Of a stretch of DNA of 64,000 nucleotides, positions 23,062 to 51,500 are shown piece by piece. Under the pieces are notes generated by a model. The model was not told the DNA's origin. It did not search any database and was given only the letters and a program-made list of their open reading frames with translations. A program made the position numbers and the translations under genes. Position 1 is the first letter of the stretch. Each line of letters starts with the position of its first letter. This DNA comes from Clostridia bacterium (GTDB lineage: Bacteria > Bacillota > Clostridia > UMGS1883), in assembly GCA_051866635.1 (NCBI GenBank), contig JBJDXJ010000011.1:1-64000 (forward strand), read 5' to 3'.

Positions 23062-23849
23062 TCCACTACATCTCCTTCGTATATCATTTCTGCCGGTCCC
23101 TTCATGGTGACAGAATAATCAGGTGCTACTGTAATTTTAAGTGTTCCTCCGTCCAAAAGTACAGATATTTCATCATCGGTGGAGCAATACCCTTCTCTTA
23201 TTGCCGCTGAAACAGATGCACATGCCCCTGTTCCGCAAGCCATTGTTACACCGCTTCCCCGCTCCCACACACGCATACGCAATGTATGTTCATCTATGAC
23301 CTGTACAAATTCAACATTTACGCCATCGGGAAAAGCACTGTGATGTTCCATTTTGGGTCCTATTGTTAAAAGGGGTGCTTTTTCTATATCGGGAACGAAA
23401 TTAACAGCATGAGGATTTCCCACAGATACAGGAGTACAACAAACTTCTTCACCGTCTATTGAAAGTGTAAGGTTTTCCGATACTACAGCTTTACCCATTC
23501 CCACAGATACGGTTTTTACCTTTCCCTTTGACAAATGCAAATCAAGGGTTTTTACACCTGACAGTGTTTCTATTTTGAGATGCTTCTTGTCTGTATATCC
23601 TTTGTCATATACATACTTTCCCACACAGCGAATACCGTTACCGCACATTTTTGCTTCTGAACCGTCTGCATTAAAAATTCTCATCTTAAAGTCCGCAATT
23701 TCTGATGGAGAAATATAAATCATCCCGTCAGAGCCTGCTCCAAAATGCCTGTCAGACAGTTTTATTGATAACGACTCAATATTTTCGGGCACTTCGCCGT
23801 AAACATATAAATAATCATTTCCAAGTCCGTGCATCTTTGTAAAGTGCAT
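23058..23849 (-). CDS. dapF: Diaminopimelate epimerase
   Basis: FTKMHGLGNDY, MCGNGIRC, ERGSG.TMACGTG. Confidence 0.96.
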   Translation of the reverse strand: MHFTKMHGLGNDYLYVYGEVPENIESLSIKLSDRHFGAGSDGMIYISPSEIADFKMRIFNADGSEAKMCGNGIRCVGKYVYDKGYTDKKHLKIETLSGVKTLDLHLSKGKVKTVSVGMGKAVVSENLTLSIDGEEVCCTPVSVGNPHAVNFVPDIEKAPLLTIGPKMEHHSAFPDGVNVEFVQVIDEHTLRMRVWERGSGVTMACGTGACASVSAAIREGYCSTDDEISVLLDGGTLKITVAPDYSVTMKGPAEMIYEGDVVE

Positions 23850-23877
23850 TGTAGTTCCTCCTCGCTAATTTACAAAT

Positions 23878-26800: not shown

Positions 26801-27063
26801 ATGGCATCGGGTCTTTCACGTCTTATAATCTTTGCAATATATTCCAGATTAAGAGGCTCCATATATACCTTATCCGCAACTGTTGTATCAGTCATAATTG
26901 TTGCGGGATTTGAATTGCAAAGGATAACTTCATAACCTTCTTCCCTAAGTGCAAGACATGCCTGAGTTCCTGCATAGTCAAACTCTGCCGCCTGTCCTAT
27001 AACTATGGGACCTGAACCGATAACGAGAACCTTTTTTATATCTTGTCTTTTAGGCATTTTCAT
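23878..27063 (-). CDS. carB: Carbamoyl-phosphate synthase large subunit
   Basis: [17 protein letters not shown], duplicated ATP-grasp domains (EVNPR twice), MGS domain. Confidence 0.98.
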
Positions 27064-28147
27064 TTTCTCCCTTCATCAGTTCAATAAATTCATCAAACAA
27101 ATATGCACTGTCCTGGGGACCGGGCGCACTTTCGGGATGGTACTGAACAGAAAAGATTTTATCCTTTTTGCACTCTATGCCCTCAACAGTATTATCAAGC
27201 AAATTTATATGTGTAATCTCAAGACGGGTTCCTACAATGCTGTCTGTATCAACAGCGTAGGAATGGTTCTGAGAAGTAATTTCAATTTTATTTGTTTTTA
27301 AATTTCTTACGGGATGATTTCCACCACGGTGTCCGAATTTCAGCTTATATGTTTTTGCACCGTATGCAAGTGATATAATCTGATGACCCAGACAAATACC
27401 GAATATGGGATATTTACCCTTAAGATTTTTTATTGTTTCAATAGTTTGCGAAACATCTGTAGGGTCCCCGGGTCCGTTTGAAATAAACACACCGTCAGGG
27501 TTAAGATTTTCTATATCTTCTGCCTTTGTATTATAAGGTACAACAGTAACAGAACATTCTCTTTGTTGCAGGGAACGAAGAATGTTCAGCTTCATGCCGC
27601 AGTCTATTGCCACAACATGATATTTTTTATTTTCAGTGGGATAAAAAGCACTTTTTTTCCTGCTGACTTTTGAAACCGCATCTTTGGGGATTTCAGTATT
27701 CTTAAGTATACTAAGTCCCTCATCCAGTGTTGTTTCAATTCCCGTAACAAGCACCTTGCGGCTACCCAAATCACGGATAGAACGTGTGATCTGTCTTGTG
27801 TCCACACCGTATATACCGGGTATATGATAACGCTTCATAACATCGGAAAGGCTTTCTACGCTACGGAAATTGGATGGTTCATCGTTGTATTCACGTACAA
27901 TTAAAGCACCGATTGTAGGTGTTTTTGTTTCATAATCCTCAGGACATATTCCGTAATTTCCGATTAAAGGATAAGTCATTACAACTGCCTGATAAGTATA
28001 AGACGGATCTGATACAATTTCCTGATATCCAACCATTGATGTATTAAAAACGATTTCACATACTTTATCAGCAGTATCACCGAAAGCAAAGCCCAAATAT
28101 TCGCTTCCGTCTTCTAAAATAATTTTTCTGTTATATTTTTCTGCCAT
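27050..28147 (-). CDS. carA: Carbamoyl-phosphate synthase small subunit
   Basis: [28 protein letters not shown]. Confidence 0.98.
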
Positions 28148-28162
28148 TGTGAAACCCCGCTT

Positions 28163-32743
<4,581 letters not shown>

Positions 32744-32752
32744 CTCTTAATT

Positions 32753-34168
32753 TTAAAGATTAATTTCTGCTGTTTCTCTGGAAATATCAGACACTAATGG
32801 TCTTATTTTATTAAGATAAGCCTCCACCTGTTCAGGACATCTGCCTATATACAAGGAGGGAGTCAAAAGAGTGTTCATTTCGCTTTCAGTTAAACCAAAA
32901 TCCTTTTCCTTTGCCAAACGTGAAAGCAAATCACATTCTTCACCGTTCTTCATTTTTGCAGTAGCTTCCATTGAACACTTTCTTATAATTTCATGAAGCT
33001 GCTGGCGGTCGCCACCCTTCTTTACCGCTTCCATCATCAAGTTTTCTGTTGCGATAAAGGGCAGATATTCTTTAACTGTTTTTTCAACAATCTTTTCGTT
33101 CACCACAAGTCCGTCTGTAACGTTTTGTGCAAGTCGTAATATGGCATCTGCACAAAGGAAACCTTCGGGAATTGAAATACGTCTGTTTGCACTGTCGTCA
33201 AGTGTTCTTTCAAGCCACTGAACAGACGCTGTCATGGAAGCATTTTGTGTATCTGCCATAAGATAACGTGCCAAAGAACAGATACGTTCACTTCTCATGG
33301 GGTTACGTTTATATGCCATAGCGGAAGAACCAATCTGATTTTTTTCAAAGGGTTCTTCTACCTGTCTGTCATGCTGTAAAAGTCTTATATCGTTTGCCAT
33401 ACGGTAACAGCTCTGTGCAATAGAAGAAAGTGCATTCAGAATTCTGCTGTCAACCTTTCTGGGATAAGTCTGTCCGCAAACGTCAAAGCACTGTGAAAAA
33501 CCAAAATCTTTTGAAATCTGTCTGTTCATTTCATCAATCTTTGACATATCACCGTCAAACAAATCAACAAAGCTTGCTTCTGTGCCTGTAGTACCGCGGC
33601 AACCGAGGAACTTAATGTTTTCTATTGCAAATTCAACTTCATTAAGATCTGACATAAAGTCCTGAAGCCAAAGTGTGGCTCTCTTTCCCACTGTTACAAG
33701 CTGAGCAGGCTGATAATGGGTGTAGCCAAGTGTAGGCAAAGATTTAAACTTGTCTGCAAAGTCAACAAGGTTTGCAATAACCTTTAAAAGTTCATTCTTA
33801 ATGTAAAGTAAACCATCACGGTAAATAACAAGGTCTGCATTATCTGTTACATAACAGCTTGTTGCACCTAAATGAATAATACCTGCCGCCAAAGGTGCCA
33901 CTTTGCCGTAAGCATAAACATGTGCCATAACATCATGTCTTACTTCTTTTTCTCTCTGTGCTACTACATCATAATCGATATCTTCGATGTGTTCTTCCAT
34001 CTGGGAAATCTGTTCCTTTGTAACAGGAAGCCCCAAATTCATTTCTGCCTTAGCAAGAGCCACCCAAAGCTTACGCCATGTCTGATAACGTGTATCTGAT
34101 GAAAAAAGCTTGAGCATATATTCTGACGCATATCTGGATGATAACGGGGATTCATATTTATTTGTCAT
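32753..34168 (-). CDS. purB: Adenylosuccinate lyase
   Basis: PLSSRYAS, RHDVMAH, THYQPAQ, GSSAMAYKRNP. Confidence 0.97.
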   Translation of the reverse strand: MTNKYESPLSSRYASEYMLKLFSSDTRYQTWRKLWVALAKAEMNLGLPVTKEQISQMEEHIEDIDYDVVAQREKEVRHDVMAHVYAYGKVAPLAAGIIHLGATSCYVTDNADLVIYRDGLLYIKNELLKVIANLVDFADKFKSLPTLGYTHYQPAQLVTVGKRATLWLQDFMSDLNEVEFAIENIKFLGCRGTTGTEASFVDLFDGDMSKIDEMNRQISKDFGFSQCFDVCGQTYPRKVDSRILNALSSIAQSCYRMANDIRLLQHDRQVEEPFEKNQIGSSAMAYKRNPMRSERICSLARYLMADTQNASMTASVQWLERTLDDSANRRISIPEGFLCADAILRLAQNVTDGLVVNEKIVEKTVKEYLPFIATENLMMEAVKKGGDRQQLHEIIRKCSMEATAKMKNGEECDLLSRLAKEKDFGLTESEMNTLLTPSLYIGRCPEQVEAYLNKIRPLVSDISRETAEINL

Positions 34169-34228
34169 GATTTATCTCCTTTATCTGACTTTTATTTTAT
34201 CAATCGTTTTTAACTAAGCAAGTAATGC

Positions 34229-35503
34229 TTATCTTATTATTATACTGTCTCTTTCAGGACCTACGGAAACATACTTAATTCTGCAACCGATAGCTTCTTC
34301 GATATATGTTACATAATCCTTTGCTTCCTTGGGCAATTCGTCCCATGTACGAATAGAGGAAACGTCACACTTCCAGCCGTCCAGATATTCTATTACCGCT
34401 TCAGCTCTCTTAAGTGCTGAGGGGAATGGGAATTCATCTGTAACCTGACCGTCTAAAAGGTAATGTGAGCATACGGGGATTTTATCCAGATAGCTTAACA
34501 CATCAAGCTTTGTAAGTGCAATTTCTGTTGCACCCTGAACCTCTACACCGTATCTTGTTGCAACTATGTCAATAGGTCCTACTCTACGTGGTCTGCCTGT
34601 TTTTGCACCGTATTCAAAGCCTGCTTCTCTGAGCTTTTCAGCTTCTTCGCCGAACATTTCGCAAACGAAGGGACCTTCGCCAACGCATGTGGAATAAGCC
34701 TTTACAACACCTATAACATTATCAATTTTTGCGGAAGGGAGTCCTGAACCGATAGGTGCGTAAGCCGCAGTTGTGTTTGAAGATGTTGTATAGGGATGAA
34801 TGCCGTAATCAAGGTCACGAAGTGAACCAAGCTGAGCTTCAAACATAATATTTTTGCCCTTCTTCTGTGCATCGCGAAGGTAGCTTCCCGTATTGCAAAC
34901 ATAAGGCTTTATCTTTTCACAATAATTTGAAATCCAATCTTCAAGCATTTCCATTGTGTAGGGTTCTGCTCCATAAACCTTTGTTAAAGTTAAGTTTTTC
35001 CATTCCATAATATCGGAAAGGTGTGCTCTCAATTCTTCAGGGTAGAAAAGTTCACCGGCTAAAATTGTCTTTTTCTGATACTTATCCGAGTAAAAAGGTG
35101 CGATACCCTGCTTTGTAGAACCGAATTTCTTGTCAGCAAGTCTCAATTCTTCAAGAGCGTCCAAATCTCTATGCCAAGGGAGCAAAAGAGAAGCTCTGTC
35201 ACTTATCTTTAAATTTTCGGCAGTAAGGGATACACCCTTGCTTTCAACTTCCTGTATCTCGTTCCACAAGTTCTCGGGGTCAAGTGCTACGCCGTTACCC
35301 AATATATTTACTACGCCTTCTCTGAAAATACCTGAAGGAAGAAGGTGAAGTGCAAACTTACCCTTTTCGTTAATTACAGTATGTCCTGCATTGCCGCCGC
35401 CCTGAAAGCGTACAACAACATCATAATCTTCTGTGATTAAGTCAACCATTCTGCCCTTGCCTTCATCGCCCCAGTTTATACCTACGATTGCACAATTTGA
35501 CAT
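34229..35503 (-). CDS. purA: Adenylosuccinate synthase
   Basis: WGDEGKG, GGGNAGHT, TGRPRR, LTKLDVL. Confidence 0.97.
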   Translation of the reverse strand: MSNCAIVGINWGDEGKGRMVDLITEDYDVVVRFQGGGNAGHTVINEKGKFALHLLPSGIFREGVVNILGNGVALDPENLWNEIQEVESKGVSLTAENLKISDRASLLLPWHRDLDALEELRLADKKFGSTKQGIAPFYSDKYQKKTILAGELFYPEELRAHLSDIMEWKNLTLTKVYGAEPYTMEMLEDWISNYCEKIKPYVCNTGSYLRDAQKKGKNIMFEAQLGSLRDLDYGIHPYTTSSNTTAAYAPIGSGLPSAKIDNVIGVVKAYSTCVGEGPFVCEMFGEEAEKLREAGFEYGAKTGRPRRVGPIDIVATRYGVEVQGATEIALTKLDVLSYLDKIPVCSHYLLDGQVTDEFPFPSALKRAEAVIEYLDGWKCDVSSIRTWDELPKEAKDYVTYIEEAIGCRIKYVSVGPERDSIIIR

Positions 35504-35516
35504 TTTTTTCCCTCCA

Positions 35517-36230
35517 TTACTTATGCTCTAAAGCTCTTCTCATAACTTCAGTGTATGCGTCCTCAACACCGCCCAGATCACGTCTGAATCTGTCTTTGTC
35601 AAGCTTTTCACCTGTTTCGCTGTCCCAAAGTCTGCAAGTGTCGGGGCTGATTTCGTCAGCAAGGATTATAGTACCGTCACTTGTTTTACCGAACTCAAGC
35701 TTAAAGTCAACTAAAGTTACACCACATTCCTTCCAGAATGACTTAAGGAATTCATTTACCTTAAAAGCATATTCTTCTATTATTTCAATTTCTTCCCTTG
35801 TTGCGGCACCGATAGCTATAGCATGGTAATCGTTCATCAAAGGATCGCCCAAGTCGTCGTTCTTATATGAAAATTCAACTGTGGGATTTTCAAAAACAGT
35901 TCCTTCAGGAACACCGAAACGCTTTGAAAATGAACCTGCCGCAATATTTCTTACTATAACCTCCAAAGGAACAATTGAAACCTTCTTTACAACTGTTTCA
36001 CGGGGGGAAAGTTCTTCAACAAAGTGGGTGGGAACACCATATTCGGAAAGCTTGTCCATAAGCATGTTGCTCATGCGGTTATTGATTTCGCCCTTTCCTG
36101 AAATTGTTCCCTTCTTCAAGCCGTTAAATGCAGTTGCATCATCCTTATATGATACAATCAACAATTCGGGGTTGTCTGTAGCATACACCTTTTTTGCTTT
36201 ACCTTCATACAACTGAGCTTTCTTTTCCAT
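35517..36230 (-). CDS. purC: SAICAR synthase
   Basis: [35 protein letters not shown]. Start at ATG 36230 after GAGGT. Confidence 0.97.
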
Positions 36231-36309
36231 AACATAAACCTCATTTCTTAAAACTTTTATATTATTATAATTATTCACTATGTTATGAAGGAGCGCCCCG
36301 TTTCAAATC

Positions 36310-36440
36310 AAAAAAATAAAGGCGTCTTTAACGCTATTCATGCATTAAAGACGCCTTTGCCTTTTACTTGTATTTTACGTCCAAAACAAAAAGTCAGACA
36401 ATAATCCCGACATGACATCGAAGACGCCTTTGCCCTCACA
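36310..36440 (-). promoter_or_regulatory. ANTAR-responsive leader of the purC...dapL operon (two hairpins plus terminator)
   Basis: GGC-AAAGGC-GTC at 36423-36434 and 36350-36361 (3-bp stem, 6-nt loop with A1/G4). The second hairpin overlaps the 5' arm of a terminator (36310-36358). Confidence 0.8.
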
Positions 36441-38443: not shown

Positions 38444-40192
38444 TTATTCAACGTCCTGGAGTGCGTCGTAACCTTCTTCGCCTGTACGAACCTTTACAAC
38501 GTTTTCAACATCGTAAACGAAAATCTTACCGTCACCGATGTGACCTGTGTAAAGAACCTTCTTTGCTGTTTCGATTACGCTTCTTACAGGAACCTTGCTT
38601 ACTACCATTTCAACCTGAATTTTGGGAAGTAAGCTGGGTTCAACTTCTACACCACGGTAGTATTCGGGTTTACCCTTCTGAACACCGCAACCCATAACGT
38701 GAGTTACCGTCATACCTGTAATACCAATATTAAGCATACTTGACTTAAGTGCTTCAAGCATTCTTTCACGGCATACAATTTCAATCTTTGTCAGCTTGTG
38801 CTCGCCTTCTGTGAAGGAGGGCATCTTCTTAACTTCTACAGCCTCTGCTACGGGAACACTGCCTGTTACAACTGTTGCACCGGGAAGAGAATCATAGCTG
38901 TGGGGAACAATTCCAAAGTCTGCATAAGAGCTGGGAAGACCGTGTTCTGTCTTGTCAAGACCTGTAAGTTCTTCTTCAGCACTTGCACGAAGACCTACTG
39001 TCTTGTTGATTACAGTAAATGTGATTAACATTGTTACTGCTGTCCAAGCAACGATTGCAACGATACCTATTGTCTGAACACCTAAAAGTGTTGCATCGCC
39101 TGTGTAGAACAAACCGTCAAGACCTGCAGGGGCATCAGGATTTGCCAAAAGACCTACTGCCAGTGTTCCCCAGATACCGTTTGCCATATGTACACCTACA
39201 GCACCAACGGGGTCGTCAACGTGAAACTTAATGTCCAAGCCTTCAACAACTACTACAACCAAGATACCGGATACAACGCCTACTACCAAGGAACCGAAAG
39301 CGTCCAATGCATCACAGCCCGCTGTAATACCAACAAGTCCTGCCAAAGATGCGTTCAAACACATTGAAACATCGGGTTTACCATTCTTAATCCAAGTAAA
39401 TACCATACATACAACAGTTGCAACTGCGGGAGCGATTGTTGTTGTAAGGAAGATTGAACCAAGTTCGGGAACACTTGTTGCTGCGGCACCGTTGAAGCCG
39501 TACCAGCCAAACCAAAGGATAAAGCAACCTAAAGCACCAATAGTGATTGCATGACCGGGAATAGCGTTAACCTTTGTAACCTTACCGTTTTTGTCTGTAA
39601 CGTACTTACCGATTCTGGGACCTAAAATCATCGCACCGATAAGAGCCGCTACACCACCTACTGTGTGAATTGCCGCACTACCTGCATAATCATGGAAGCC
39701 CATGCTTGCAAGCCAGCCCTGGCTGTTCCAAACCCAACCTGCTTCGATGGGATATACAACAAGGGAGATAACGCCTGAATAAATACAGTATGCCAAGAAC
39801 TTTGTTCTTTCTGCCATAGCACCGGATACAATTGTTGCCGCTGTTGCACAGAATACAAGGTTAAATACAAAACTTGATGCATTTCCCTCTATAAATCCGC
39901 CGAAATCGGTGAAAATGCTCATGTTGGGCACACCGATAAATCCAAACAGATAATCTTCAGCCATCATAAGTGAAAAGCCTAAGAACACGAACATTACAGT
40001 ACCTATACAGAAGTCCATAAGGTTCTTCATAATAATGTTACCTGCGTTCTTTGCTCTTGTGAAGCCTGTTTCAACCATTGCGAAGCCTGCCTGCATAAAG
40101 AATACAAGTGCTGCACCGATCAAAAACCAGACTGCAAACACCTGTTCTGACACGGCTCCTGTTACCAATTCCATTAATTCTGTACCTACCAT
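38444..40192 (-). CDS. amt: Ammonium transporter fused to C-terminal P-II (GlnK) domain
   Basis: FFMQAGFA, IVSGAMAER, DYAGSAAIH, WFGWYGFN, DDPVGAVGVH, then YRG..LLPK..TGHIGDGKIFV..VRTGEEG. Confidence 0.95.
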   Translation of the reverse strand: MVGTELMELVTGAVSEQVFAVWFLIGAALVFFMQAGFAMVETGFTRAKNAGNIIMKNLMDFCIGTVMFVFLGFSLMMAEDYLFGFIGVPNMSIFTDFGGFIEGNASSFVFNLVFCATAATIVSGAMAERTKFLAYCIYSGVISLVVYPIEAGWVWNSQGWLASMGFHDYAGSAAIHTVGGVAALIGAMILGPRIGKYVTDKNGKVTKVNAIPGHAITIGALGCFILWFGWYGFNGAAATSVPELGSIFLTTTIAPAVATVVCMVFTWIKNGKPDVSMCLNASLAGLVGITAGCDALDAFGSLVVGVVSGILVVVVVEGLDIKFHVDDPVGAVGVHMANGIWGTLAVGLLANPDAPAGLDGLFYTGDATLLGVQTIGIVAIVAWTAVTMLITFTVINKTVGLRASAEEELTGLDKTEHGLPSSYADFGIVPHSYDSLPGATVVTGSVPVAEAVEVKKMPSFTEGEHKLTKIEIVCRERMLEALKSSMLNIGITGMTVTHVMGCGVQKGKPEYYRGVEVEPSLLPKIQVEMVVSKVPVRSVIETAKKVLYTGHIGDGKIFVYDVENVVKVRTGEEGYDALQDVE

Positions 40193-42316: not shown

Positions 42317-42515
42317 AATAATTCACATAGCCTTTCTGCCACAAATATTAATGAAAATTAATTTTTACGCTCTTGCTGTGGCGGACAAGGCGTATAATGC
42401 GAATTGTGTCCATGTGCGTTTTCCGAGCAAGCGAGGAAATTCTCGCACGGACAATCAAATCCGCCGGAGGCTTAATGTGAAAACTTTCACGTTAAACATC
42501 TCCTTAATAAATAGC

Positions 42516-42760
42516 TAAAGGCGTCTTTAATGTAAAATACACTAAAGACGCCTTTGCCTTTTTTAACATATTAGTTTGTTTTGTAATAAAACACACCATA
42601 CATTTACAATCTGTACTTTTTTGTCACCCCATTGTGACAGACAGACGTAAAATGCATCTTCCCGATTACATATTAACATATGATAACCATTCTGCTTTTA
42701 TTAACAAAAAAAGAAAAGCCGTCAAAGAGTTTTACCTCTAAGACGTCTTTGCCTTACAAC
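42516..42760 (-). promoter_or_regulatory. ANTAR-responsive leader of the GSIII-amt-asnB operon
   Basis: GGC-AAAGAC-GTC (42742-42753) overlapping a terminator (42706-42750); GTCAC-AATGGG-GTGAC (42623-42638); GGC-AAAGGC-GTC (42547-42558) overlapping a second long stem (42516-42555). Confidence 0.78.
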
Positions 42761-42764
42761 GCAC

Positions 42765-42793
42765 ATGATACACTCATATTTTTCGTTTGTCAA
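42765..42793 (-). promoter_or_regulatory. Sigma-A promoter of the GSIII operon
   Basis: TTGACA-17 nt-TATCAT. Confidence 0.75.
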
Positions 42794-42852: not shown

Positions 42853-42881
42853 TTGACAAAATTTGATTTTTATTGTATAGT
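42853..42881 (+). promoter_or_regulatory. Sigma-A promoter of the glutamate synthase operon
   Basis: TTGACA-17 nt-TATAGT. Confidence 0.75.
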
Positions 42882-42892
42882 TGTCGCAAATG

Positions 42893-42948
42893 GGCAAAGA
42901 CGTTCATTCACTTAAGGGATACCCTTGCGGTGAATGGCGTCTTTTTTT
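42893..42948 (+). promoter_or_regulatory. ANTAR hairpin plus attenuator terminator of the glutamate synthase operon
   Basis: GGC-AAAGAC-GTT (42893-42904) overlaps the terminator GACGTTCATTCAC...GTGAATGGCGTC-T7. Confidence 0.78.
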
Positions 42949-42978
42949 GTTTTATTAAGGACGAAAGGACGTGGACCT

Positions 42979-44076
42979 ATGAAATTAGAAGGTCAGGTAC
43001 GAATTCCTTCAGGCTGTGCAATTGCCGCAGTAATATCTAAGGAAGGAAATCCTATGACAGGTGAAAAGATAATCGATGCCATGAAACCCATGCACGACCG
43101 TTCCAACGGTTTGGGAGGAGGATTTGCGGCGTACGGTATCTATCCCGAGTATAAAGATTTTTATGCATTGCATTTTTTCTTTGATGACCGTTCTACACGT
43201 AAAGAATGTGAGCAGTTTTTAAAGGAAAGATTTGAAATTGTTAAATCTGAACTTATCCCTACAAGGAAAATACCTCAGATTACAGACGAACCTATTATAT
43301 GGAGATATTTTGTAGCTCCTTTAAAATCTGTTCTTCTTTCTATGCAGCTTGATGAAAACGAATTTGTTGCACAGACTGTAATGAAGATAAACACACAGAT
43401 GCACGGAGCATACGTATTTTCAAGCGGTAAAAACATGGGTGCATTTAAAGCTGTGGGATTTCCTGAAGATGTGGGCGTATTTTATAAACTTGACGAATAC
43501 GAAGGCTATTCCTGGACAGCACACGGTCGTTATCCTACCAACACTCCCGGCTGGTGGGGCGGTGCTCATCCCTTTACACTTCTTGACTATTCTATTGTAC
43601 ATAACGGTGAAATTTCATCTTACGATGCAAACCGCCGCTTTATAGAAATGTTCGGTTATAAGTGTACTTTGCAAACAGATACGGAAGTTATTACATATAT
43701 AATGGACTATTTGCTTAGAAGGCAAAACCTTACACTTTCTGAAGCCGCCAGCGTTATCGCTGCACCCTTCTGGAGTACTATTGAAAATAAGACAGATTTG
43801 GAAGATAAAGAAAAGCATATATATTTAAGAACACTTTTCCCAAGTCTTCTTATAACAGGTCCCTTCTCTATTGTTTTCGGCTTTAACGGCGGACTTATGG
43901 CGTTAAATGACCGTTTGAAACTTCGCAGCATGGTTGTAGGCGAAAAGGACGACAAGGTTTATATTGCCAGCGAAGAAGCCGCTATCCGTGTAATGGAACC
44001 TGATGCTGAAAACATCTGGGCACCTAAAGGCGGAGAACCTGTAATTGTTAAAGTGAAGGACGGTGCAATGATATGA
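42979..44076 (+). CDS. Glutamate synthase amidotransferase subunit (GltB1-like, class II GATase)
   Basis: SGCAIA Cys, RSNGLGGG, AHGRYPTNT..WGGAHPF, HNGEISSY, TDTEV. Start at ATG 42979. Confidence 0.9.
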   Translation: MKLEGQVRIPSGCAIAAVISKEGNPMTGEKIIDAMKPMHDRSNGLGGGFAAYGIYPEYKDFYALHFFFDDRSTRKECEQFLKERFEIVKSELIPTRKIPQITDEPIIWRYFVAPLKSVLLSMQLDENEFVAQTVMKINTQMHGAYVFSSGKNMGAFKAVGFPEDVGVFYKLDEYEGYSWTAHGRYPTNTPGWWGGAHPFTLLDYSIVHNGEISSYDANRRFIEMFGYKCTLQTDTEVITYIMDYLLRRQNLTLSEAASVIAAPFWSTIENKTDLEDKEKHIYLRTLFPSLLITGPFSIVFGFNGGLMALNDRLKLRSMVVGEKDDKVYIASEEAAIRVMEPDAENIWAPKGGEPVIVKVKDGAMI

Positions 44077-45578
44077 GTGTCCAATTTATCTATCCCGAAT
44101 TTGAAGTTGTAAGAAATCAGAATCGTTGTATAGCTTGTCGTGTATGCGAAAGACAGTGTTCCAACGAAGTACATTCATATGATGAAGAAAATAGAATTGT
44201 AATAAGCGATGAATCTAAATGCGTAAACTGTCAGAGATGTGTTTCTCTCTGCCCCACAAGAGCATTGAAAATTGTAAAGAGTGACTGCACATTTCGTGAA
44301 AATGCGAACTGGCAGAATGACACAATAAAGGAAGTATATAAGCAGGCAAACAGCGGTGCTGTTCTTCTTTCATCAATGGGCAATCCCAAGCCCCTTCCTG
44401 TATATTGGGATAAAATTTTAATCAATGCATCTCAGGTAACAAACCCACCTATCGATCCCCTTCGTGAACCTATGGAAACCCGTGTGTTCTTGGGGGCTAA
44501 GCCCGAAAAGGTTCAGCGTGACGAAAACGGAAAATTAAAGTGCAATCTTCCGCCACAGCTTGAGCTTTCCATGCCTGTTATGTTCTCTGCAATGAGCTAC
44601 GGTTCGATAAGCTACAATGCACACGAGTCATTGGCAAGAGCCGCAACAGAGCTTGGTATTTTATATAACACAGGTGAAGGCGGTCTTCATGAAGATTTCT
44701 ATTGCTACGGTGAAAATACAATCGTTCAGGTTGCATCAGGCCGTTTCGGTGTACATAAGGATTATTTAGAGGCAGGTGCCGCCGTTGAAATTAAAATGGG
44801 TCAAGGTGCAAAGCCCGGTATAGGCGGACACCTTCCCGGTGCTAAAATTGTGGGCGATGTTTCAAGAACAAGAATGATTCCCGAAGGCAGTGACGCTATT
44901 TCTCCTGCTCCCCACCACGACATATATTCTATTGAAGATTTACGTCAGCTTGTATACTCTTTAAAGGAAGCTACAGAATATAAAAAGCCTGTTATTGTAA
45001 AGGTTGCGGCAGTTCACAATATTGCGGCTATCGCAAGCGGTATTGCCAGAAGCGGTGCCGATATAATTGCAATTGACGGTTTCCGTGGCGGTACAGGTGC
45101 CGCACCCACAAGGATACGTGATAACGTTGGTATTCCCATTGAATTGGCTTTAGCATCTGTTGACAGCCGTCTTCGTGAAGAAGGTATCAGAAACAATGTT
45201 TCTTTGGTTGTGGGCGGTTCTATCCGCAGTGCATCAGACGTTGTAAAGGCAATAGCACTCGGTGCAGATGCATGCTATGTTGCTACAGCGGCACTTTTAG
45301 CACTTGGCTGTCACCTTTGCCGTACTTGTCAGAGCGGCAAGTGCAACTGGGGTATTGCAACACAAAGACCTGAACTTGTAAAAAGACTTAACCCAGATAT
45401 GGGAAGCGAACGCTTAATAAATCTGATGAATGCCTGGAAACATGAAATTAAAGAGCTTATGGGCGGTATGGGCATAAACTCTATAGAAGCACTCCGCGGT
45501 AACAGACTGATGCTTCGTGGTGTGGGACTTACTGACAGGGAGCTTTCTATACTTGGCATTTCTCACGCAGGAGAGTGA
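44073..45578 (+). CDS. Glutamate synthase FMN-binding subunit with N-terminal 2[4Fe-4S] domain (GltB2-like)
   Basis: Two CxxCxxCxxxC motifs, AMSYGS, NTGEGG, QVASGRFG, GQGAKPGIGGHLP, CHLCRTC..GKC. Confidence 0.93.
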   Translation: MSVQFIYPEFEVVRNQNRCIACRVCERQCSNEVHSYDEENRIVISDESKCVNCQRCVSLCPTRALKIVKSDCTFRENANWQNDTIKEVYKQANSGAVLLSSMGNPKPLPVYWDKILINASQVTNPPIDPLREPMETRVFLGAKPEKVQRDENGKLKCNLPPQLELSMPVMFSAMSYGSISYNAHESLARAATELGILYNTGEGGLHEDFYCYGENTIVQVASGRFGVHKDYLEAGAAVEIKMGQGAKPGIGGHLPGAKIVGDVSRTRMIPEGSDAISPAPHHDIYSIEDLRQLVYSLKEATEYKKPVIVKVAAVHNIAAIASGIARSGADIIAIDGFRGGTGAAPTRIRDNVGIPIELALASVDSRLREEGIRNNVSLVVGGSIRSASDVVKAIALGADACYVATAALLALGCHLCRTCQSGKCNWGIATQRPELVKRLNPDMGSERLINLMNAWKHEIKELMGGMGINSIEALRGNRLMLRGVGLTDRELSILGISHAGE

Positions 45579-45583
45579 TAAAA

Positions 45584-46024
45584 ATGAAACTTGTATATGC
45601 AAACGAAAAATGGTGCATAGGCTGTCACTTATGTGAATATAACTGTGCATTTGCCAATTCAGGCAAAAATAACATGGTAAAGGCATTAAAGGATAAAGAA
45701 ATATTCCCCCGTGTATGTGTGGAAGATACCGGCAAAATCACCTATGCAGTTTCCTGTCGTCATTGCGACGACCCTATCTGTGTAAAGAGCTGTATTTCAG
45801 GTGCACTTTCAAAACAGGACGGCGTAATCAAAATTGATAAAGAAAAATGTATCGGTTGCCTCACATGTATACTGGTCTGTCCTTACGGTGCCCTGTCGCA
45901 AGGCGAAAAGGGTGCAGTGCAGAAATGCGAATTGTGCCTTGAAAATTCATGCGGTGCTCCTGCATGTGTAGCAGGATGCCCCAACAGAGCTCTTGTTTAC
46001 GAAGAAAGAGGTGATACAGAATGA
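45584..46024 (+). CDS. 4Fe-4S dicluster (polyferredoxin-like) subunit
   Basis: Four Cys clusters: CIGCHLC, CRHC..C..C, CIGCLTC..CP, KCELC..C..CP. Confidence 0.9.
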   Translation: MKLVYANEKWCIGCHLCEYNCAFANSGKNNMVKALKDKEIFPRVCVEDTGKITYAVSCRHCDDPICVKSCISGALSKQDGVIKIDKEKCIGCLTCILVCPYGALSQGEKGAVQKCELCLENSCGAPACVAGCPNRALVYEERGDTE

Positions 46025-47268
46025 AAAATTATTGTATTATCGGTAACGGTGTTGCCGCGGCAGGTTGTATTGAAGGTATAAGAAGTGTTGATAAAGATAA
46101 TAAAATTACAGTAATTTCAGAAGAAAATTACCCTGTATACTGCCGTCCCCTTATTTCATATTATCTTGAAGAAAAAACAACTATCAAAAAAATGAATTAC
46201 CGTGCCGAAAACTTTTATGAAGCAAACGGCTGTGAAGTAATTTACGGAAAAAAGGCTGTAGAAATTAATGAAAATGACAAAATCGTAAAACTTGACGACA
46301 ATACATCTGTATCCTATGACTCTTTATGTATCGCCGCAGGCTCCTCCCCCTTTGTTCCGCCCATGGAAGGTCTTGAAACTGTTTCAAAGAAATTTTCATT
46401 TATGACAATAGACGATGCCCTTTCATTGGAAAAAGCCATCACAAAGGAGTCTAAGGTGCTTATTATCGGTGCAGGTCTTATCGGTCTTAAATGTGCCGAA
46501 GGTATTCGTGATAAGGTAGCTGAAATTACAGTTTGTGATTTGTCGGAAAGAATTCTTTCAAGTATATTTGACGATGAATGTGCCCGTCTTATGCAAAAGC
46601 ACCTTGAAAATAACGGCATAAAGTTTATGCTTGGGGATACTGCTGTGTCTTTCAATAAAAATACGGCAGTGATGAAAAGCGGTGCTAAGCTTGATTTTGA
46701 TGTGCTTGTTATTGCAGTTGGTGTCAGAGCAAACACATCTCTTTTCAAAAATATAGGCGGAGATACAAATCGCGGTATTATAGTTGACGACAAAATGCAG
46801 ACAAATAAGGAAGGCATATATGCCGCAGGTGACTGCACTGAAGGAAACGATATTACCATCGGACAAAAGCGAGTTCTTGCAATACTCCCCAACGCCTATA
46901 TGCAGGGCTTTTGTGCGGGAGAAAATATGGCAGGTGGCGATGGTGTATTTAATAATGCAATCCCCATGAACTCAATCGGATTTTTCGGACTTCACGCAAT
47001 GACAGCCGGAAGCTACTTTACGGAGGAAGAAGGCGGCACATTGTACGAAGAAAAAGGTGAAAACAGTATTAAAAGACTGTATATGAAGGATGGAATTCTT
47101 ACAGGTTATATTATTATAGGCGATGTTGACCGTGCGGGAATATACACCTCTCTTGTAAGAGAAAGAACACCTCTTGATACGGTAAATATGGATTTACTGA
47201 AAAAAAATCCGACCCTTGGAATATTTTCTGAAAAAATTCGTGGAAAAAAGCTGAGAGGTGTGTTATAA
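46021..47268 (+). CDS. NAD(P)/FAD-dependent oxidoreductase (probable electron donor to glutamate synthase)
   Basis: GNGVAA, GAGLIG, YAAGDC; coupled within the operon. Confidence 0.85.
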   Translation: MKNYCIIGNGVAAAGCIEGIRSVDKDNKITVISEENYPVYCRPLISYYLEEKTTIKKMNYRAENFYEANGCEVIYGKKAVEINENDKIVKLDDNTSVSYDSLCIAAGSSPFVPPMEGLETVSKKFSFMTIDDALSLEKAITKESKVLIIGAGLIGLKCAEGIRDKVAEITVCDLSERILSSIFDDECARLMQKHLENNGIKFMLGDTAVSFNKNTAVMKSGAKLDFDVLVIAVGVRANTSLFKNIGGDTNRGIIVDDKMQTNKEGIYAAGDCTEGNDITIGQKRVLAILPNAYMQGFCAGENMAGGDGVFNNAIPMNSIGFFGLHAMTAGSYFTEEEGGTLYEEKGENSIKRLYMKDGILTGYIIIGDVDRAGIYTSLVRERTPLDTVNMDLLKKNPTLGIFSEKIRGKKLRGVL

Positions 47269-47269
47269 T

Positions 47270-47989
47270 ATGACAATAGATGCAAAAAATGTGGATTATA
47301 AAGAATTAAATGAAGCATTAAAATCAGAAGATGATAGATGTGAGATTTCCTCATGTCTTGGTCAGCGATTTATTGCGGCAGGTTTGTCAGATAAATATAT
47401 TACGATACATGGTATTCCCGGTAACGCTCTCGGTGCGTATCTTAACGGTGCAGTCATTGAAGTTATGGGCAATGCACAGGACGCTGTGGGCGACACTATG
47501 AATGAGGGTGAAATAATCATTCACGGAAATATCGGCGATGCGGCAGGCTATGCAATGCGTGGCGGAAAAATATTTGTAAAAGGCAATGCCGGTTACCGTG
47601 CAGGTATTCATATGAAAGCATATAAGGAAAAACAGCCTCTCCTTGTCATTGGCGGCAAGGCAGGTAGCTTTTTGGGCGAATACCAGGCAGGCGGCACCAT
47701 AATTGTGCTCGGTATTGAAGATAATGACAAACCCATTGTAAGTAATTTCCCCGGAACAGGTATGCACGGCGGAAGAATGTTCCTTCGTTCCTCCTGTGAG
47801 GGTATTGAATTTCCAAGTCAGGTTACCTTAAGAAAGGCAACGGGCGAGGATTTAGATGAAATCAAAGGATATATTTCGGAATTTTGTGGTCATTTCGGAT
47901 ATAAAGAGGAAGATATTTTAAATTCTGAATTTACTGTTGTCACACCTGACAGCAAAAATCCCTATAAGCAGATGTACGTAGCAAATTAA
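47270..47989 (+). CDS. Glutamate synthase C-terminal GXGXG domain subunit (GltB3-like)
   Basis: GQRFI and repeated G..G..M..G motifs (GDTMNEG, GYAMRGG, GEYQAGG, GMHGG). Confidence 0.9.
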   Translation: MTIDAKNVDYKELNEALKSEDDRCEISSCLGQRFIAAGLSDKYITIHGIPGNALGAYLNGAVIEVMGNAQDAVGDTMNEGEIIIHGNIGDAAGYAMRGGKIFVKGNAGYRAGIHMKAYKEKQPLLVIGGKAGSFLGEYQAGGTIIVLGIEDNDKPIVSNFPGTGMHGGRMFLRSSCEGIEFPSQVTLRKATGEDLDEIKGYISEFCGHFGYKEEDILNSEFTVVTPDSKNPYKQMYVAN

Positions 47990-48008: not shown

Positions 48009-49217
48009 ATGAAATATTCAGCACAGGAAGTTATACAGTATGTTAACGAGGAGGATGTAAAATTTATTCGCCTTGCCTTTTGTGATGTCTATGGCAGACA
48101 AAAGAACATATCCATAATGCCAAGTGAGCTTCCCCGTGCTTTTGAATATGGAATTTCTTTTGATGCTTCTGCCGTTGGTGGTTTTGGTGACGAGGCAGAG
48201 TCTGACCTGTTCCTTCGTCCCGATCCGGAAACGCTTTCAATTCTTCCCTGGCGACCTGAACACGGCAGAGTTGTCCGCATGTTCTGTACAATAACAGATC
48301 CAAACGGTAAGGTTTTTGAATGTGATACGAGAAGCGTTCTGAAAAAGGCCATAGCCGATGCCAAAAAGTCAGGGGTTGAGTTTTATTTCGGTTCAGAATT
48401 GGAATTTTACCTATTCAAACTTGACGAAGACGGTAACCCCACAAAAACGCCTTACGACAATGCAGGTTATATGGATATGGCACCTGAAGACAAGGGCGAA
48501 AATGTCCGCCGTGAAATTTGTCTTAACTTAGAGCAAATGGGCATACGCCCCGAGAGTTCTCACCATGAAGAAGGTCCCGGGCAGAACGAAATTGACTTCC
48601 GTTATTCAAACCCTCTAACTGCCGCTGATGATGCAATAGCTTTTCAGACAGTTGTAAAAACAGTTGCACACCGAAACGGACTTTGTGCAGACTTTTCTCC
48701 CAAACCCCTTCAAGGAAAACCCGGTAACGGATTTCATATTAATATGTCAGTAAAGAATGACGAACACCACATTTTACTTCCTCAGATGCTTGCAGGAATT
48801 ATGGAATATATAAGAGAGCTTACTGTATTTTTAAACCCGGTTGAAGACTCTTACTTAAGATTTGGTCAGTCAAAGGCACCGAAATATATTTCATGGTCAA
48901 GCGAAAACCGTTCACAGCTTATTCGTATTCCCGCCTCCAGCGGTGAATACAGACGAGCAGAGCTTCGTTCACCTGACCCGACAACAAACCCGTATTTGGC
49001 ATATGCACTTCTTATATATGCAGGCTTGTACGGAATTGAAAATAAGCTCCACCTGCCTCCTGCCGCTCAGATAAACTTTTTCACGGCAGACAAAGCTGTT
49101 GTACGGCAGTATCAAGAACTGCCCGATAAGCTTTCCGAGGCAAAGGAACTGGCACTTAACAGCAAGTTTATATCAGAGCATCTTCCCCAATCGATTATTA
49201 ACATATACTGCAAATAA
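48009..49217 (+). CDS. Type I glutamine synthetase-like protein (degenerate, C-terminally short)
   Basis: ELEFY, HHEEGPGQNE, PKP..PGNGFH, NRS.LIRIP and ELRSPD are retained. FDGSS reads FDASA, the GYEAP flap reads QSKAP, and the protein is only 402 aa. Confidence 0.85.
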   Translation: MKYSAQEVIQYVNEEDVKFIRLAFCDVYGRQKNISIMPSELPRAFEYGISFDASAVGGFGDEAESDLFLRPDPETLSILPWRPEHGRVVRMFCTITDPNGKVFECDTRSVLKKAIADAKKSGVEFYFGSELEFYLFKLDEDGNPTKTPYDNAGYMDMAPEDKGENVRREICLNLEQMGIRPESSHHEEGPGQNEIDFRYSNPLTAADDAIAFQTVVKTVAHRNGLCADFSPKPLQGKPGNGFHINMSVKNDEHHILLPQMLAGIMEYIRELTVFLNPVEDSYLRFGQSKAPKYISWSSENRSQLIRIPASSGEYRRAELRSPDPTTNPYLAYALLIYAGLYGIENKLHLPPAAQINFFTADKAVVRQYQELPDKLSEAKELALNSKFISEHLPQSIINIYCK

Positions 49218-49241
49218 TTATAAAGTGAAGGAGGTATTAAA

Positions 49242-49826
49242 ATGGATTTTAAAGAGCGAGTATACAGTGTACTTATAGTATCTGCATCTGACAAATTCAA
49301 TGCCTCCCTTAAGGAATTATTCCCCGATTTTAAATATAGTCCTGTGATTTTTGAAGCAAGTGTAAGCGGTGCAAAACGAGCAGTGATAGAGAGGGAATAT
49401 GATTTTATAATTATCAACTCTCCCCTTCCTGATGACGACGGAATACGTTTTTCCATTGATGTATGCACAGGTAAGAGTTCGGTTGTTATGATGCTTATAA
49501 GAAATGAAATATACCTGTCTGTTTTTGACAAGGTTTCAAAAAATGGCGTTTATACCCTTTCTAAGCCCACATCAAAGCAAACCATATACCAGGCACTTGA
49601 CTGGATGGCTTCCACAAGAGAAAGACTCAGAAAACTTGAAAAGAAAACAATTTCTCTTGAAGATAAGATGCAGGAAATCAGAATTGTTAACAAAGCAAAG
49701 TGGATTTTGATAACCAATCTTCAAATGACTGAAACAAATGCCCATCGTTACATTGAAAAACAGGCAATGGACAGATGCGTATCAAAAAAGGAAGTTGCGG
49801 AAGAAATTATAAGAACTTACTCATAA
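49242..49826 (+). CDS. ANTAR RNA-binding antiterminator with pseudo-receiver domain (NitR/AmiR-like)
   Basis: C-terminal IVNKAKWILI..MTETNAHRYIEKQAMDR..KKEVAEEI. The receiver fold has IVSA and IINSPLP in place of the acidic pocket and phospho-Asp. Confidence 0.92.
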   Translation: MDFKERVYSVLIVSASDKFNASLKELFPDFKYSPVIFEASVSGAKRAVIEREYDFIIINSPLPDDDGIRFSIDVCTGKSSVVMMLIRNEIYLSVFDKVSKNGVYTLSKPTSKQTIYQALDWMASTRERLRKLEKKTISLEDKMQEIRIVNKAKWILITNLQMTETNAHRYIEKQAMDRCVSKKEVAEEIIRTYS

Positions 49827-49841: not shown

Positions 49842-51143
49842 ATGTTTAACTCAGATAACTTATCAATAAATTCAAAAAATCATTTAACTATAGGAAACCA
49901 CGACACGGTAGAATTGGCAAAGGAATTTGGCACTCCCCTTTATGTTCTTGACGAAGATTTAATGCGGAAAAACTGCCGTGATTACAAAGAAGCCATTGAC
50001 AAATACTACGATGGTAACGGTCTTGTTCTTTTTGCAAGCAAAGCTCTTTGCACTATGTATACAGCACGCCTTTCCTCTGAAGAAGGCTTAGGTGCAGACG
50101 TTGTTTCAGGCGGTGAGCTTTACACATTACATAAAGCAGGCTTCCCCATGGACAAGGTGTTTTTCCACGGAAACAATAAAACACAAAGTGAGCTTGAACT
50201 TGCCTTAGACCTTAAAGTAGGTCATATAGTTGTTGATAACAAGTATGAGCTTGATTTATTGAATGAACTTGCAAAGACAAAGGGCATTGTTCAGAATATT
50301 TTATTCCGCATTAAGCCCGGAATTGATGCACATACACACGACTTTGTAAAAACAGGACAAATTGACTCTAAATTCGGTGTTGCACTGGAAAACGGTGAAG
50401 CATTTGAAATTCACAAGTATGCTTCCACTTTATCAAACATCTGCCTTGACGGTGTACATTGTCACATCGGTTCTCAGATATTTGACTTTGCACCCTTCTG
50501 CGAAGCGGCAAAGGTAATGATGAACTTTGTAGCAGACTTACATGAAAAGCTTTCACTTAAGGTTAAAATATTAAACTTAGGCGGTGGCTTCGGCATCAGA
50601 TATACAAGTGACGATGATCCCCTTACCCCGGCAGAATATATTAAAAAGACTGTTGAAGCCGTAAAAGAAGTGGCTTTGGAAAGAAATATTGATCTTCCCT
50701 ATCTTGTATTTGAACCGGGCAGGAGCATTGTTGCGCCGGCAGGAATTACGCTGTATACAGTGGGTGGCGTAAAAGAAATTGAGAACGTGAGAACATACGT
50801 TTCAATTGACGGTGGTATGGGGGACAACCCCAGATATATACTTTACGGTTCAAAGTACAGTGCAGTTTTGGCAAACAATGCCTCGGCAGAAAATGTTGCT
50901 CCCGTAACAATTGCCGGAAAGTGCTGTGAATCAGGTGATTTAATTCAGGAAAATATAATGATGCCAGAAATTAAAGTTGGCGATACAATTGCCATTTTAG
51001 CAACAGGTGCATACAACTACTCCATGGCAAGTAACTATAACCGTATTCCCCGTCCCCCTATCGTTTGCGTAAAGGGTGACGAAAAGAAGGTTATTGTAAA
51101 AAGAGAAACATATGACGACATAATTAAAAATGACGTTTTGTAA
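49842..51143 (+). CDS. lysA: Diaminopimelate decarboxylase
   Basis: GTPLYV, FASKA (PLP Lys), HCHIGSQI, LGGGFG, EPGRSIV, GKCCESGD, GAYNYSMASNYN. Confidence 0.96.
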   Translation: MFNSDNLSINSKNHLTIGNHDTVELAKEFGTPLYVLDEDLMRKNCRDYKEAIDKYYDGNGLVLFASKALCTMYTARLSSEEGLGADVVSGGELYTLHKAGFPMDKVFFHGNNKTQSELELALDLKVGHIVVDNKYELDLLNELAKTKGIVQNILFRIKPGIDAHTHDFVKTGQIDSKFGVALENGEAFEIHKYASTLSNICLDGVHCHIGSQIFDFAPFCEAAKVMMNFVADLHEKLSLKVKILNLGGGFGIRYTSDDDPLTPAEYIKKTVEAVKEVALERNIDLPYLVFEPGRSIVAPAGITLYTVGGVKEIENVRTYVSIDGGMGDNPRYILYGSKYSAVLANNASAENVAPVTIAGKCCESGDLIQENIMMPEIKVGDTIAILATGAYNYSMASNYNRIPRPPIVCVKGDEKKVIVKRETYDDIIKNDVL

Positions 51144-51177: not shown

Positions 51178-51500
51178 CAGGCTGTCTATAAACCTACTTT
51201 TCGCACAATCGCAAGGGGGTTCCCCAGAATAAAAATAGGAGCCGGAAATCGCATTTTCGGCTCCGAAAGTGGCAATTTTAGGGGGTTGTAGACCCCTTGC
51301 ACGAGAAATTGCCACTTTGTTCCTTAGAAATATCAGACATCAAAGTGCTGAAGGGCATTGCCCGCCTTTGAGGTCGCGTGTCGACATTTCGGCACGCTTT
51401 TTTTATCATATAGGAAATTGCACGCAGAATGTGTGCATATTTGCTTATGAAATAAAAGCTTACCTTTTCATCCCCCTAGATTGGGGGACTGAGGGGGTCG
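51178..51500. repeat. GC-rich multi-hairpin intergenic element (MITE/REP-like)
   Basis: Consecutive stems: GGAGCCGGAA/TTTCGGCTCC, AAAGTGGCAATTT/AAATTGCCACTTT, GCGTGTCGA/TCGGCACGC-T7 and others; no credible ORF. Confidence 0.5.

Follow-up and report, generated by a model that had tools for sequence, protein, structure and literature searches.

A glutamine synthetase-like protein encoded beside a NitR-type antiterminator in Clostridia: a derived form of glnA-nitR with a plausible sensor role

How does an antiterminator that appears to have lost its phosphorylation site learn the nitrogen status of its cell? The question was raised by two adjacent genes in a 64,000-nucleotide stretch of a Clostridia bacterium (contig JBJDXJ010000011.1 of assembly GCA_051866635.1, positions 1 to 64,000, forward strand), hereafter the window. 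The first gene encodes a 402-aa relative of type I-alpha glutamine synthetase (GSI-alpha; GS, glutamine synthetase), here called the GS-like protein, and the second encodes a 194-aa ANTAR antiterminator of the NitR type. A first-pass annotation of the sequence had proposed that the two form a new nitrogen-sensing system, in which the GS-like protein is a dedicated sensor of glutamine or glutamate that acts on the ANTAR protein. The present analysis partly supported this interpretation. The pair is real and widespread, and it is a variant derived from the clostridial glnA-nitR pair, which was already known. Support was good for the antitermination part of the system; that the GS-like protein acts as a sensor is plausible, with the ligand question sharpened towards 2-oxoglutarate (2-OG).

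A protein search with the GS-like protein gave 7997 matches, the best 120 of which were 366–421 aa long and 71–88% identical to it. With one genome taken per species, 567 of 598 candidate stretches encoded a GS-like relative, that is, such relatives were present in at least 567 species-level genomes. Neighbourhoods were counted at the best 80 loci (66–81% identity), which belonged to Lachnospiraceae, Oscillospiraceae, Ruminococcus, Christensenellaceae, Erysipelotrichaceae and others. An ANTAR homologue followed downstream on the same strand in 76 of these loci, at a distance of no more than 164 nt in 73, and three of the four loci without it had less than 600 nt of contig remaining. Genes for glutamate synthase (GOGAT) lay directly upstream of the GS-like gene in 52 of the 80 loci by manual count. 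A class-wide sample of 151 genomes was also searched for NitR, GSI-type and type III GS (GSIII) genes. A NitR homologue was found in 62 of the 151 genomes, a GSI-type gene in 82 of 150 and GSIII in 100 of 150, and 53 of the 62 NitR homologues directly adjoined a GSI-type gene (coordinates cross-read).

Related gene pairs have been described. NitR of C. saccharobutylicum is reported to be an ANTAR antiterminator that induces the GS and GOGAT genes on nitrogen limitation (PMC6316151). In glnA-nitR of C. saccharobutylicum and C. acetobutylicum, as in the window, a receiver-ANTAR gene comes after a GSI-alpha gene that is linked to GOGAT. In C. thermocellum a 'predicted seven gene operon' has been described beside a GS gene (PMC3478167), and two of its members are Clo1313_2031, a type I-alpha GS, and Clo1313_2030, the ANTAR regulator (PMC4676874, PMC9888227). 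The published accounts of Clo1313_2030-2036 (Cthe_0197-0203) give the same gene order as the window, namely GSIII, then five GOGAT genes, a type I GS and an ANTAR regulator (PMC4676874, PMC9888227, PMC3478167). Because glnA-nitR was already known and C. thermocellum has an identical seven-gene operon, calling the system new was an overstatement.

The GS-like protein matched Gln-synt_N (85.3 bits) and Gln-synt_C (292.1 bits) of Pfam, and it fell below the cut-off of every curated GS-family equivalog, scoring 334.6 bits against 429.15 for the NCBIfam GlnA equivalog TIGR00653 and a weak 184 bits against 650 for gamma-glutamylputrescine synthetase. Its best sequence match was the GS of M. mazei (8s59/8ufj; E 1.5e-100), and its AlphaFold2 model (pLDDT 90.2) had a TMq of 0.95 to 8s59_A from the same enzyme. 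The HMMER alignment to this enzyme placed the flap 'vpgyeapvyisws' opposite 'gq.skapkyisws'; the flap of the GS-like protein was one residue shorter, and the position of the flap Glu was occupied by Lys289 (codon AAA, 48873-48875). FDGSS was replaced by FDASA, about 12–17 residues were deleted after residue ~255 (12 in the HMMER alignment), and the C-terminus stopped ~27 residues early, at residue ~419–421 of the 446 in the M. mazei chain. The metal ligands E130, E132, E187, E194, H243 and E318 were retained, as were the Arg residues of the ATP and glutamate sites (R284, R301, R306 and R320).

Among 81 GS-like family members the flap position was Lys in 78, Arg in three and Glu in none. The flap Glu of GS is described as catalytic, in that it covers the site and removes a proton from the intermediate (PMC10799026). 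The C-terminal helices H14/H15 of M. mazei GS are reported to form the inter-hexamer contact that joins two rings (PMC11957540), and the GS-like family ends before the positions of these helices. Five of the 81 members had substitutions of metal ligands (E130A with E194K in three, E187K in one and E194K in one), and these members, together with a more distant relative, L092, still adjoined an ANTAR gene, which points to a non-catalytic role. Another GS was present in all 22 sampled genomes carrying the 402-aa type, as judged by match length and open frame and not residue by residue; it was GSIII in 21 of them and a canonical GSI in the other one. The GS-like protein descends from an active GSI-alpha, and several lines of sequence evidence point to a present role other than glutamine synthesis.

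The NitR-like protein carried an ANTAR domain at residues 139–190 (56.7 bits, cut-off 27.3), and its Response_reg match of 26.4 bits lay under the cut-off of 30.2. Alignment to Rv1626 placed 'dlvimdvkmprrdgi' opposite 'dfiiinsplpdddgi', so that Asn59 occupied the phospho-Asp position; alignment to an NtrC-family receiver placed 'vlvvddee' opposite 'vlivsasd', so that Ser14 and Ala15 occupied the positions of the acidic pair. Lys108 was retained, and a long helix covered residues 112–160. A beta-alpha receiver fold was predicted in the AlphaFold2 model (pLDDT 89.6), whose best fold matches were EutV, Rv1626 and AmiR (TMq 0.61 to AmiR). In 77 ANTAR partners the phospho-site was Asn in 74, His in two, Ser in one and Asp in none; Ser14 was found in all 77 and Lys108 in 72. 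The receiver is a conserved pseudo-receiver that cannot be phosphorylated, and the flap and phospho-site substitutions of the pair are not chance. The histidine-kinase ATPase domain HATPase_c was absent from the contig of the window, and all 16 matches in the genome lay on other contigs. The structural description in the first-pass annotation was thus borne out: a receiver without phospho-Asp and acidic pocket, no histidine kinase in the window, Lys for the catalytic flap Glu, FDASA for FDGSS, no ring-joining C-terminal helix, retained metal, glutamate and ATP motifs, and an intact GSIII.

The origin of the pair was examined by aligning 20 GS/NitR pairs from the class-wide sample. The identity of the GS to that of the window formed a continuum, from at least 57% in the 402-aa type to 44–49% in ordinary GSI-alpha of 444–450 aa. 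Five GS partners (L088, L100, L090, L098 and L091) were canonical, with FDGSS, a complete Glu flap and a complete C-terminus; the NitR beside them had no acidic pocket, and its phospho-site was Asn, Asn, Asp, Asp and Gly, respectively. An intermediate group of 433–482 aa had FDASx and a shortened flap in which the Glu was kept (Arg in one member), and the insertion and the C-terminus were kept as well. The 402-aa type formed a single clade (support 100/99), which was sister (93/88) to the degenerate L092 and was nested among the intermediates if the tree was rooted on the canonical clade. Since an Asp-less NitR also adjoins canonical GS, the loss of the flap Glu and the loss of the Asp did not co-evolve, and the pseudo-receiver is the older of the two. 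The expected co-occurrence of a flap-less GS with an Asp-less ANTAR protein held at the loci compared; their expected co-evolution did not. Compared with glnA-nitR, the GS partner in the window has 402 aa, a Lys flap, neither the feedback Arg nor the C-terminal helices, and a clade of its own. The GlnA of solventogenic clostridia is an active enzyme.

The substituted residues also bear on the ligand. Glutamine feedback is described as depending on an Arg of the Asp50' loop (R62 in B. subtilis, R66 in M. mazei) that locks the Glu flap (PMC10799026, PMC11957540). At the corresponding position the 81 GS-like members had Asp in 65, Asn in 10, Gly in six and Arg in none, and the residue in the window was Asp61. 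Because the feedback Arg is replaced in all members, sensing of glutamine in the B. subtilis manner, as first suggested for this protein, is unlikely. The 2-OG pocket of M. mazei GlnA1 is reported to consist of F24, R26, S38, R87, R172, R173 and S189 (PMC11957540). Its counterparts in the GS-like protein were F19, R21, N33, R82, R167, R168 and S184, and these residues were kept in 79–81 of the 81 members and in L092. Nineteen usable GSI genes from genomes without NitR had kept the feedback Arg in 18 cases and the Glu flap in all 19. The GS homologue of L092 (G132:C13:33000-35400, GS gene 300-1586), which lies beside a NitR gene, had lost most metal and substrate ligands (e.g., GSSCSFY, HSYHGMGPGQNVIDF and IELNT) and had kept the seven 2-OG pocket residues and the full C-terminus.

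The leaders in the window shared a 24-nt element, consisting of a 5–7-bp stem (P1) with closing C-G and G-U pairs and the hexaloop AAAGRC. An A at loop position 1 and a G at loop position 4 are described as conserved determinants of ANTAR targets (PMC3369931). The loop and the 3' half of the P1 stem doubled as the 5' arm of a long terminator that ended in a U-run. P1 alone had a folding energy of -4.5 to -6.9 kcal/mol, against -28 kcal/mol (z = -5.5) for the plus-strand terminator, and as P1 is much the weaker hairpin, termination would be the default state. The core pattern had nine matches genome-wide, five of which were leaders, all in the window: 42894(+), 42752(-), 42557(-), 36433(-) and 36360(-). 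A looser genome-wide search (up to three mismatches, hairpin plus U-run) gave no convincing leader outside the window, and the element was not found before the second GSIII of the genome, on contig C61.

In the 80 loci and the window, 81 distinct elements were found. Their P1 alignment had 88.7% of cells paired, against 73.9% in shuffles and 38–54% in slid controls, and five of the seven pairs changed on both sides. The published ANTAR target is described as a dual-hairpin motif (PMC3369931); the second hairpin of these leaders was variable and not always a hexaloop. A strict dual-hexaloop scan (two A..G hexaloops, stems of at least 4 bp) gave few matches and overlooked the actual element, since conservation is confined to the first hairpin. 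The 8-mer CAAAGACG alone had four matches in the window, a number equalled by 9 of 100 shuffles and not significant. Rfam at gathering thresholds gave no family in the window, and a glutamine riboswitch or a T-box was rejected for the leaders, given the missing Rfam match and a conserved part that is a 24-nt hairpin. The leaders may already appear in Tables S1/S2 of Ramesh et al. (2012).

Three operons of the window lay behind such leaders: GOGAT/GS-like/NitR/lysA, GSIII with an ammonium transporter-P-II fusion (Amt-PII), and purC...carAB-dapF. The regulon would thus be a contiguous block of ~30 kb that combines nitrogen assimilation with nitrogen-consuming steps. Switching of the whole cluster by the ANTAR protein had been proposed at the outset, and the ANTAR-type leader terminators found in the cluster agreed with it. 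Such leaders could also serve a NitR without any sensor, that is, a constitutive RNA binder controlled through its abundance (by promoter, positive autoregulation or antisense RNA), as has been proposed for solventogenic clostridia. NitR does lie behind its own target leader, which would give positive feedback, and for C. acetobutylicum and C. saccharobutylicum the literature cites control of glnA by antisense RNA (PMC4676874, PMC6316151). However, positive feedback with no signal entering it cannot convey the nitrogen status, and the pseudo-receiver is conserved across the whole family. We therefore regard a sensor-free NitR as very improbable.

We propose instead that NitR is gated by its neighbour. 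A NitR dimer would clamp the weak AAAGRC hexaloop hairpin in the nascent leader. Since P1 uses bases of the terminator 5' arm, NitR binding would withhold these bases from the terminator and let RNA polymerase read through; without NitR, transcription would terminate. The activity of NitR would most likely be set by the neighbouring GS-like protein through direct binding, comparable to AmiC-AmiR and NasS-NasT. At low 2-OG (nitrogen excess) the GS-like protein would hold NitR, and at high 2-OG (nitrogen limitation) its conformation or assembly would change and NitR would be freed. The analysis shows the anatomy of the system, its conservation, the linkage of the genes, the RNA elements and the residue patterns; the binding, its direction and its ligand we infer. 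That the GS-like protein is a sensor, likelier of 2-OG than of glutamine, and controls NitR by binding is a tentative reading, to which we give somewhat less than an even chance.

Direct contact, which the first-pass annotation had assumed, was addressed by complex prediction. The GS-like/NitR pair obtained an ipSAE of 0.42 (runs 0.46, 0.42 and 0.42; partner pLDDT 84), and the best of three controls obtained 0.00. Calibration of the tool had put 58 of 80 solved complexes at or above the mark, together with 2 of 110 mismatches; passes scoring no more than 0.60 comprised only seven of those 80 solved complexes and both mismatches. The modelled complex was therefore a weak pass, which may raise the odds of direct binding a little.

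Several observations weigh against the sensor reading. The complex score falls in a range in which most passes are wrong. Active-site residues were intact at all 12 checked positions in 76 of the 81 GS-like members, which is an enzyme-like pattern. R82 was present in 11 of the 19 GSI genes from NitR-less genomes, and thus the 2-OG motif is not specific to NitR-linked GS. Pairing does not need a pseudo-enzyme, because L088 and L100 combine an Asp-less NitR with a fully canonical GS. At one locus, L015, no ANTAR gene accompanied the GS-like gene, although 9 kb of room was available. Conversely, five of the 62 NitR genomes had no GSI-like gene at E ≤ 1e-40, and three of these (G051, G124 and G009) were 98–100% complete. 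NitR lay divergently beside GSIII in G024:C286, G051:C21 and G009:C19, where no GSI-like gene was found, which shows that NitR can exist without a GS-like partner. The covariation of P1 lay chiefly between type A elements (before GOGAT) and type B elements (before GSIII), so that the independent covariation events are few. The likeness to C. thermocellum concerns the published gene order, and its type I GS may differ from the 402-aa type. The idea of a dedicated sensor thus stood in part: the conserved pair, the kept ligand sites, the lost flap Glu and the presence of another GS speak for it, and NitR without a GSI-like gene speaks against it.

The intact active site also fits an explanation in which the GS-like protein is an enzyme of the regulon, either a low-activity or specialised GS or a gamma-glutamyl-amine ligase, and NitR senses nitrogen itself. 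In such a ligase the altered ammonium site (Lys flap, Ala55) would take another amine, and NitR might, for example, bind a metabolite in the pocket formed by Ser14, Asn59 and Lys108. These three residues are conserved (Asn59 in 74 of the 77 partners) far beyond the needs of a dead site. The operon layout implies co-transcription of the GS-like gene with GOGAT, the genomes with NitR and no GSI-like gene would be accounted for, and GS-family ligases with altered ammonium sites are known, in line with the weak gamma-glutamylputrescine synthetase match. However, the five members that had lost metal ligands and L092 retained the pairing, the setting was always ammonium assimilation and never amine catabolism, all curated GS-family equivalog scores were under their cut-offs, and the ring-joining C-terminus was gone. 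On balance, an enzymatic role of this kind is unlikely, though it deserves serious consideration.

The loci with NitR next to GSIII raise a further explanation, in which NitR is controlled by another partner, GSIII or the P-II domain of Amt-PII, and the GS-like protein is a mere neighbour. GSIII was placed divergently beside the operon in 35 of the 80 loci and in the window, and P-II proteins are frequent controllers of regulators. On the other hand, the same-strand order of the GS-like gene and NitR was far more constant than the adjacency of GSIII, and the sole P-II domain of the genome is tethered to a membrane transporter. Control by such a partner therefore appears improbable.

The proposed control of NitR by the GS-like protein resembles three known arrangements. 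In AmiC-AmiR of Pseudomonas aeruginosa and NasS-NasT of Paracoccus denitrificans, a pseudo-receiver/ANTAR antiterminator is described as held by a ligand-binding protein encoded beside it, and the regulator gene lies behind the very terminator it acts on, as in the window (PMC3369931, PMC3795266). Unlike AmiC and NasS, the presumed sensor of the window is a ring-forming GS paralogue and not a periplasmic-binding-protein fold, and its binding is a prediction here. The GS of B. subtilis is described as a GSI-alpha nitrogen sensor that controls TnrA and GlnR by direct contact (PMC6316151, PMC11800386), and the GS-like model was close to 4lni, 4s0r and 7tfa (TMq 0.93–0.95). However, the B. subtilis GS is an active enzyme that senses glutamine via Arg62 and the Glu flap, both of which are missing in the GS-like protein. 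TnrA and GlnR are DNA-binding proteins of the MerR type with a C-terminal tail, whereas the partner in the window is an RNA-binding ANTAR protein. The archaeal 2-OG-activated GSI-alpha enzymes (M. mazei GlnA1 and M. thermolithotrophicus GS) matched the GS-like protein best in both sequence and fold and share all seven 2-OG pocket positions with it, S38 being Asn here (PMC11957540, PMC10799026). Those are 2-OG-switched enzymes that form dodecamers via C-terminal helices; the GS-like protein has neither the flap Glu nor these helices, and its 2-OG binding is predicted from its residues.

The mechanism by which NitR senses nitrogen was called 'not fully understood' in the account of NitR given by a 2018 review (PMC6316151). 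The words 'ANTAR' and 'pseudo' did not occur in a 2025 review of GS regulation (PMC11800386), and no published GS-ANTAR protein interaction was found in our literature searches. The present family offers a concrete answer, in that an enzyme-derived receptor is proposed to lie beside the regulator. If true, this would be a third regulatory mode of GS proteins, after TnrA/GlnR and the archaeal 2-OG switch, and the first instance of an RNA-binding protein under the control of a GS fold. In 2017, Rydzak et al. reportedly observed that deletion of the type I GS of C. thermocellum derepresses nitrogen-assimilation genes although glutamine rises. Such an effect would fit a negative regulator that keeps NitR bound while nitrogen is abundant. 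The proposed control, if true, would explain the deregulated nitrogen metabolism of this deletion and would be relevant to ethanol-yield engineering.

A wider reading is that a GS paralogue was converted into a dedicated 2-OG receptor, which gates an RNA-binding antiterminator by protein contact and has lost catalysis and ring stacking but retained the allosteric pocket. Many Clostridia of gut and rumen, and some Erysipelotrichaceae, that lack free P-II would rely on it as their main nitrogen sensor, and it would control assimilation together with glutamine- and aspartate-consuming biosynthesis. We consider this wider reading doubtful at present. Genomes that encode relatives are found among gut bacteria of humans and animals, such as Lachnospiraceae, Oscillospiraceae, Ruminococcus and Christensenellaceae, and the leader element allows the regulon to be predicted in genomes that carry the pair. 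New in this analysis are the AAAGRC hexaloop target that overlaps the terminator, and the loss of the feedback Arg with retention of the 2-OG pocket.

The pair lies within a single tight plus-strand operon, which comprises a structured leader, five GOGAT genes, the GS-like gene, NitR and lysA (Table 1). The intergenic gaps among the last four genes were 19, 24 and 15 nt, the 24-nt gap being the one between the GS-like gene and NitR. GSIII and Amt-PII run divergently from this operon. The genome of the window (2.33 Mb, 96.6% complete) contained three GS-family genes, namely the GS-like gene, the full-length GSIII of the window, presumably the working glutamine synthetase, and the second GSIII. 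It contained one ANTAR gene and one P-II domain, fused to Amt, and no free P-II protein was found in this 96.6%-complete genome. The enzymes of the operon behind leaders 3 and 4 catalyse steps that consume nitrogen donors and are drawn from several pathways; the grouping of these genes under a nitrogen antiterminator is unusual.

Table 1. Coordinates of genes, leader elements and other features in the window
Feature	Position	Strand	Details
GS-like gene (GSI-alpha-like, 402 aa)	48009..49217	+	ORF
NitR-like antiterminator gene (194 aa)	49242..49826	+	ORF
Leader element type A	42889..42948	+	P1 AAUGGGC-AAAGAC-GUUCAUU at 42889-42908 overlaps 5' arm of terminator with U-run
Leader element type B no. 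1, before GSIII	42706..42759	-	P1 AAGGC-AAAGAC-GUCUU, terminator, U-run
Leader element type B no. 2, before GSIII	42517..42564	-	P1 AAGGC-AAAGGC-GUCUU, 18-bp hairpin
Leader element type B no. 3	36388..36440	-	GAGGGC-AAAGGC-GUCUUC, hairpin, U-run
Leader element type B no. 4	36310..36367	-	17-bp terminator, U-run
Promoter-like site of GOGAT operon	42853-42881	+	
Promoter-like site before GSIII leader	42793-42765	-	
Split (archaeal-type) glutamate synthase, five genes	42934..47989	+	GATase_2, Glu_synthase+Fer4, Fer4, Pyr_redox_2, GXGXG
lysA (diaminopimelate decarboxylase), final gene of operon	49842..51143	+	470 bits, cut-off 297.9
Terminator-like hairpin after lysA	51376-51397		
Type III glutamine synthetase (GSIII), 697 aa	40223..42316	-	
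Ammonium transporter-P-II fusion (Amt-PII)	38444..40192	-	
Operon behind leaders 3 and 4	21871..36278	-	purC, purA, purB, guaA, pyrG, purF, carA, carB, dapF, class I/II aminotransferase

Some further features were observed. The longest open reading frame (ORF) of the first GOGAT gene starts at ATG 42934; because this codon lies inside the leader terminator, translation more likely starts at the in-frame ATG 42979, which a purine-rich stretch precedes. An extra hexaloop hairpin, GUCAC-AAUGGG-GUGAC, whose loop has A in first and G in fourth place, was found between the two GSIII leaders (42623-42640, minus strand). Its energy of -7.5 kcal/mol was equalled by 16 of 200 shuffles. The hairpin may serve as a second site for ANTAR binding, or else mark a DNA palindrome to which a protein binds. 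The 449-nt GSIII leader (42317-42765, minus strand) was strongly structured as a whole (-149.7 kcal/mol, z = -10.5), and near the start codon (~42340-42470) it contained long helices unrelated to the NitR element. A 518-aa 'ANTAR' ORF at L099 was rejected as a fusion, being an over-extended ORF antisense through a GSIII gene. L015 and L020 belong to one metagenome-assembled genome with two GS-like copies: the copy at L015 lies behind GOGAT genes and has no ANTAR gene, and the copy at L020 has an ANTAR gene, with GOGAT not nearby. In the window, asnB (36538-38115) is located just upstream of the operon behind leaders 3 and 4 and follows Amt-PII, and an ORF of 2066 aa occupies the end of the window (57690-63890, minus strand).

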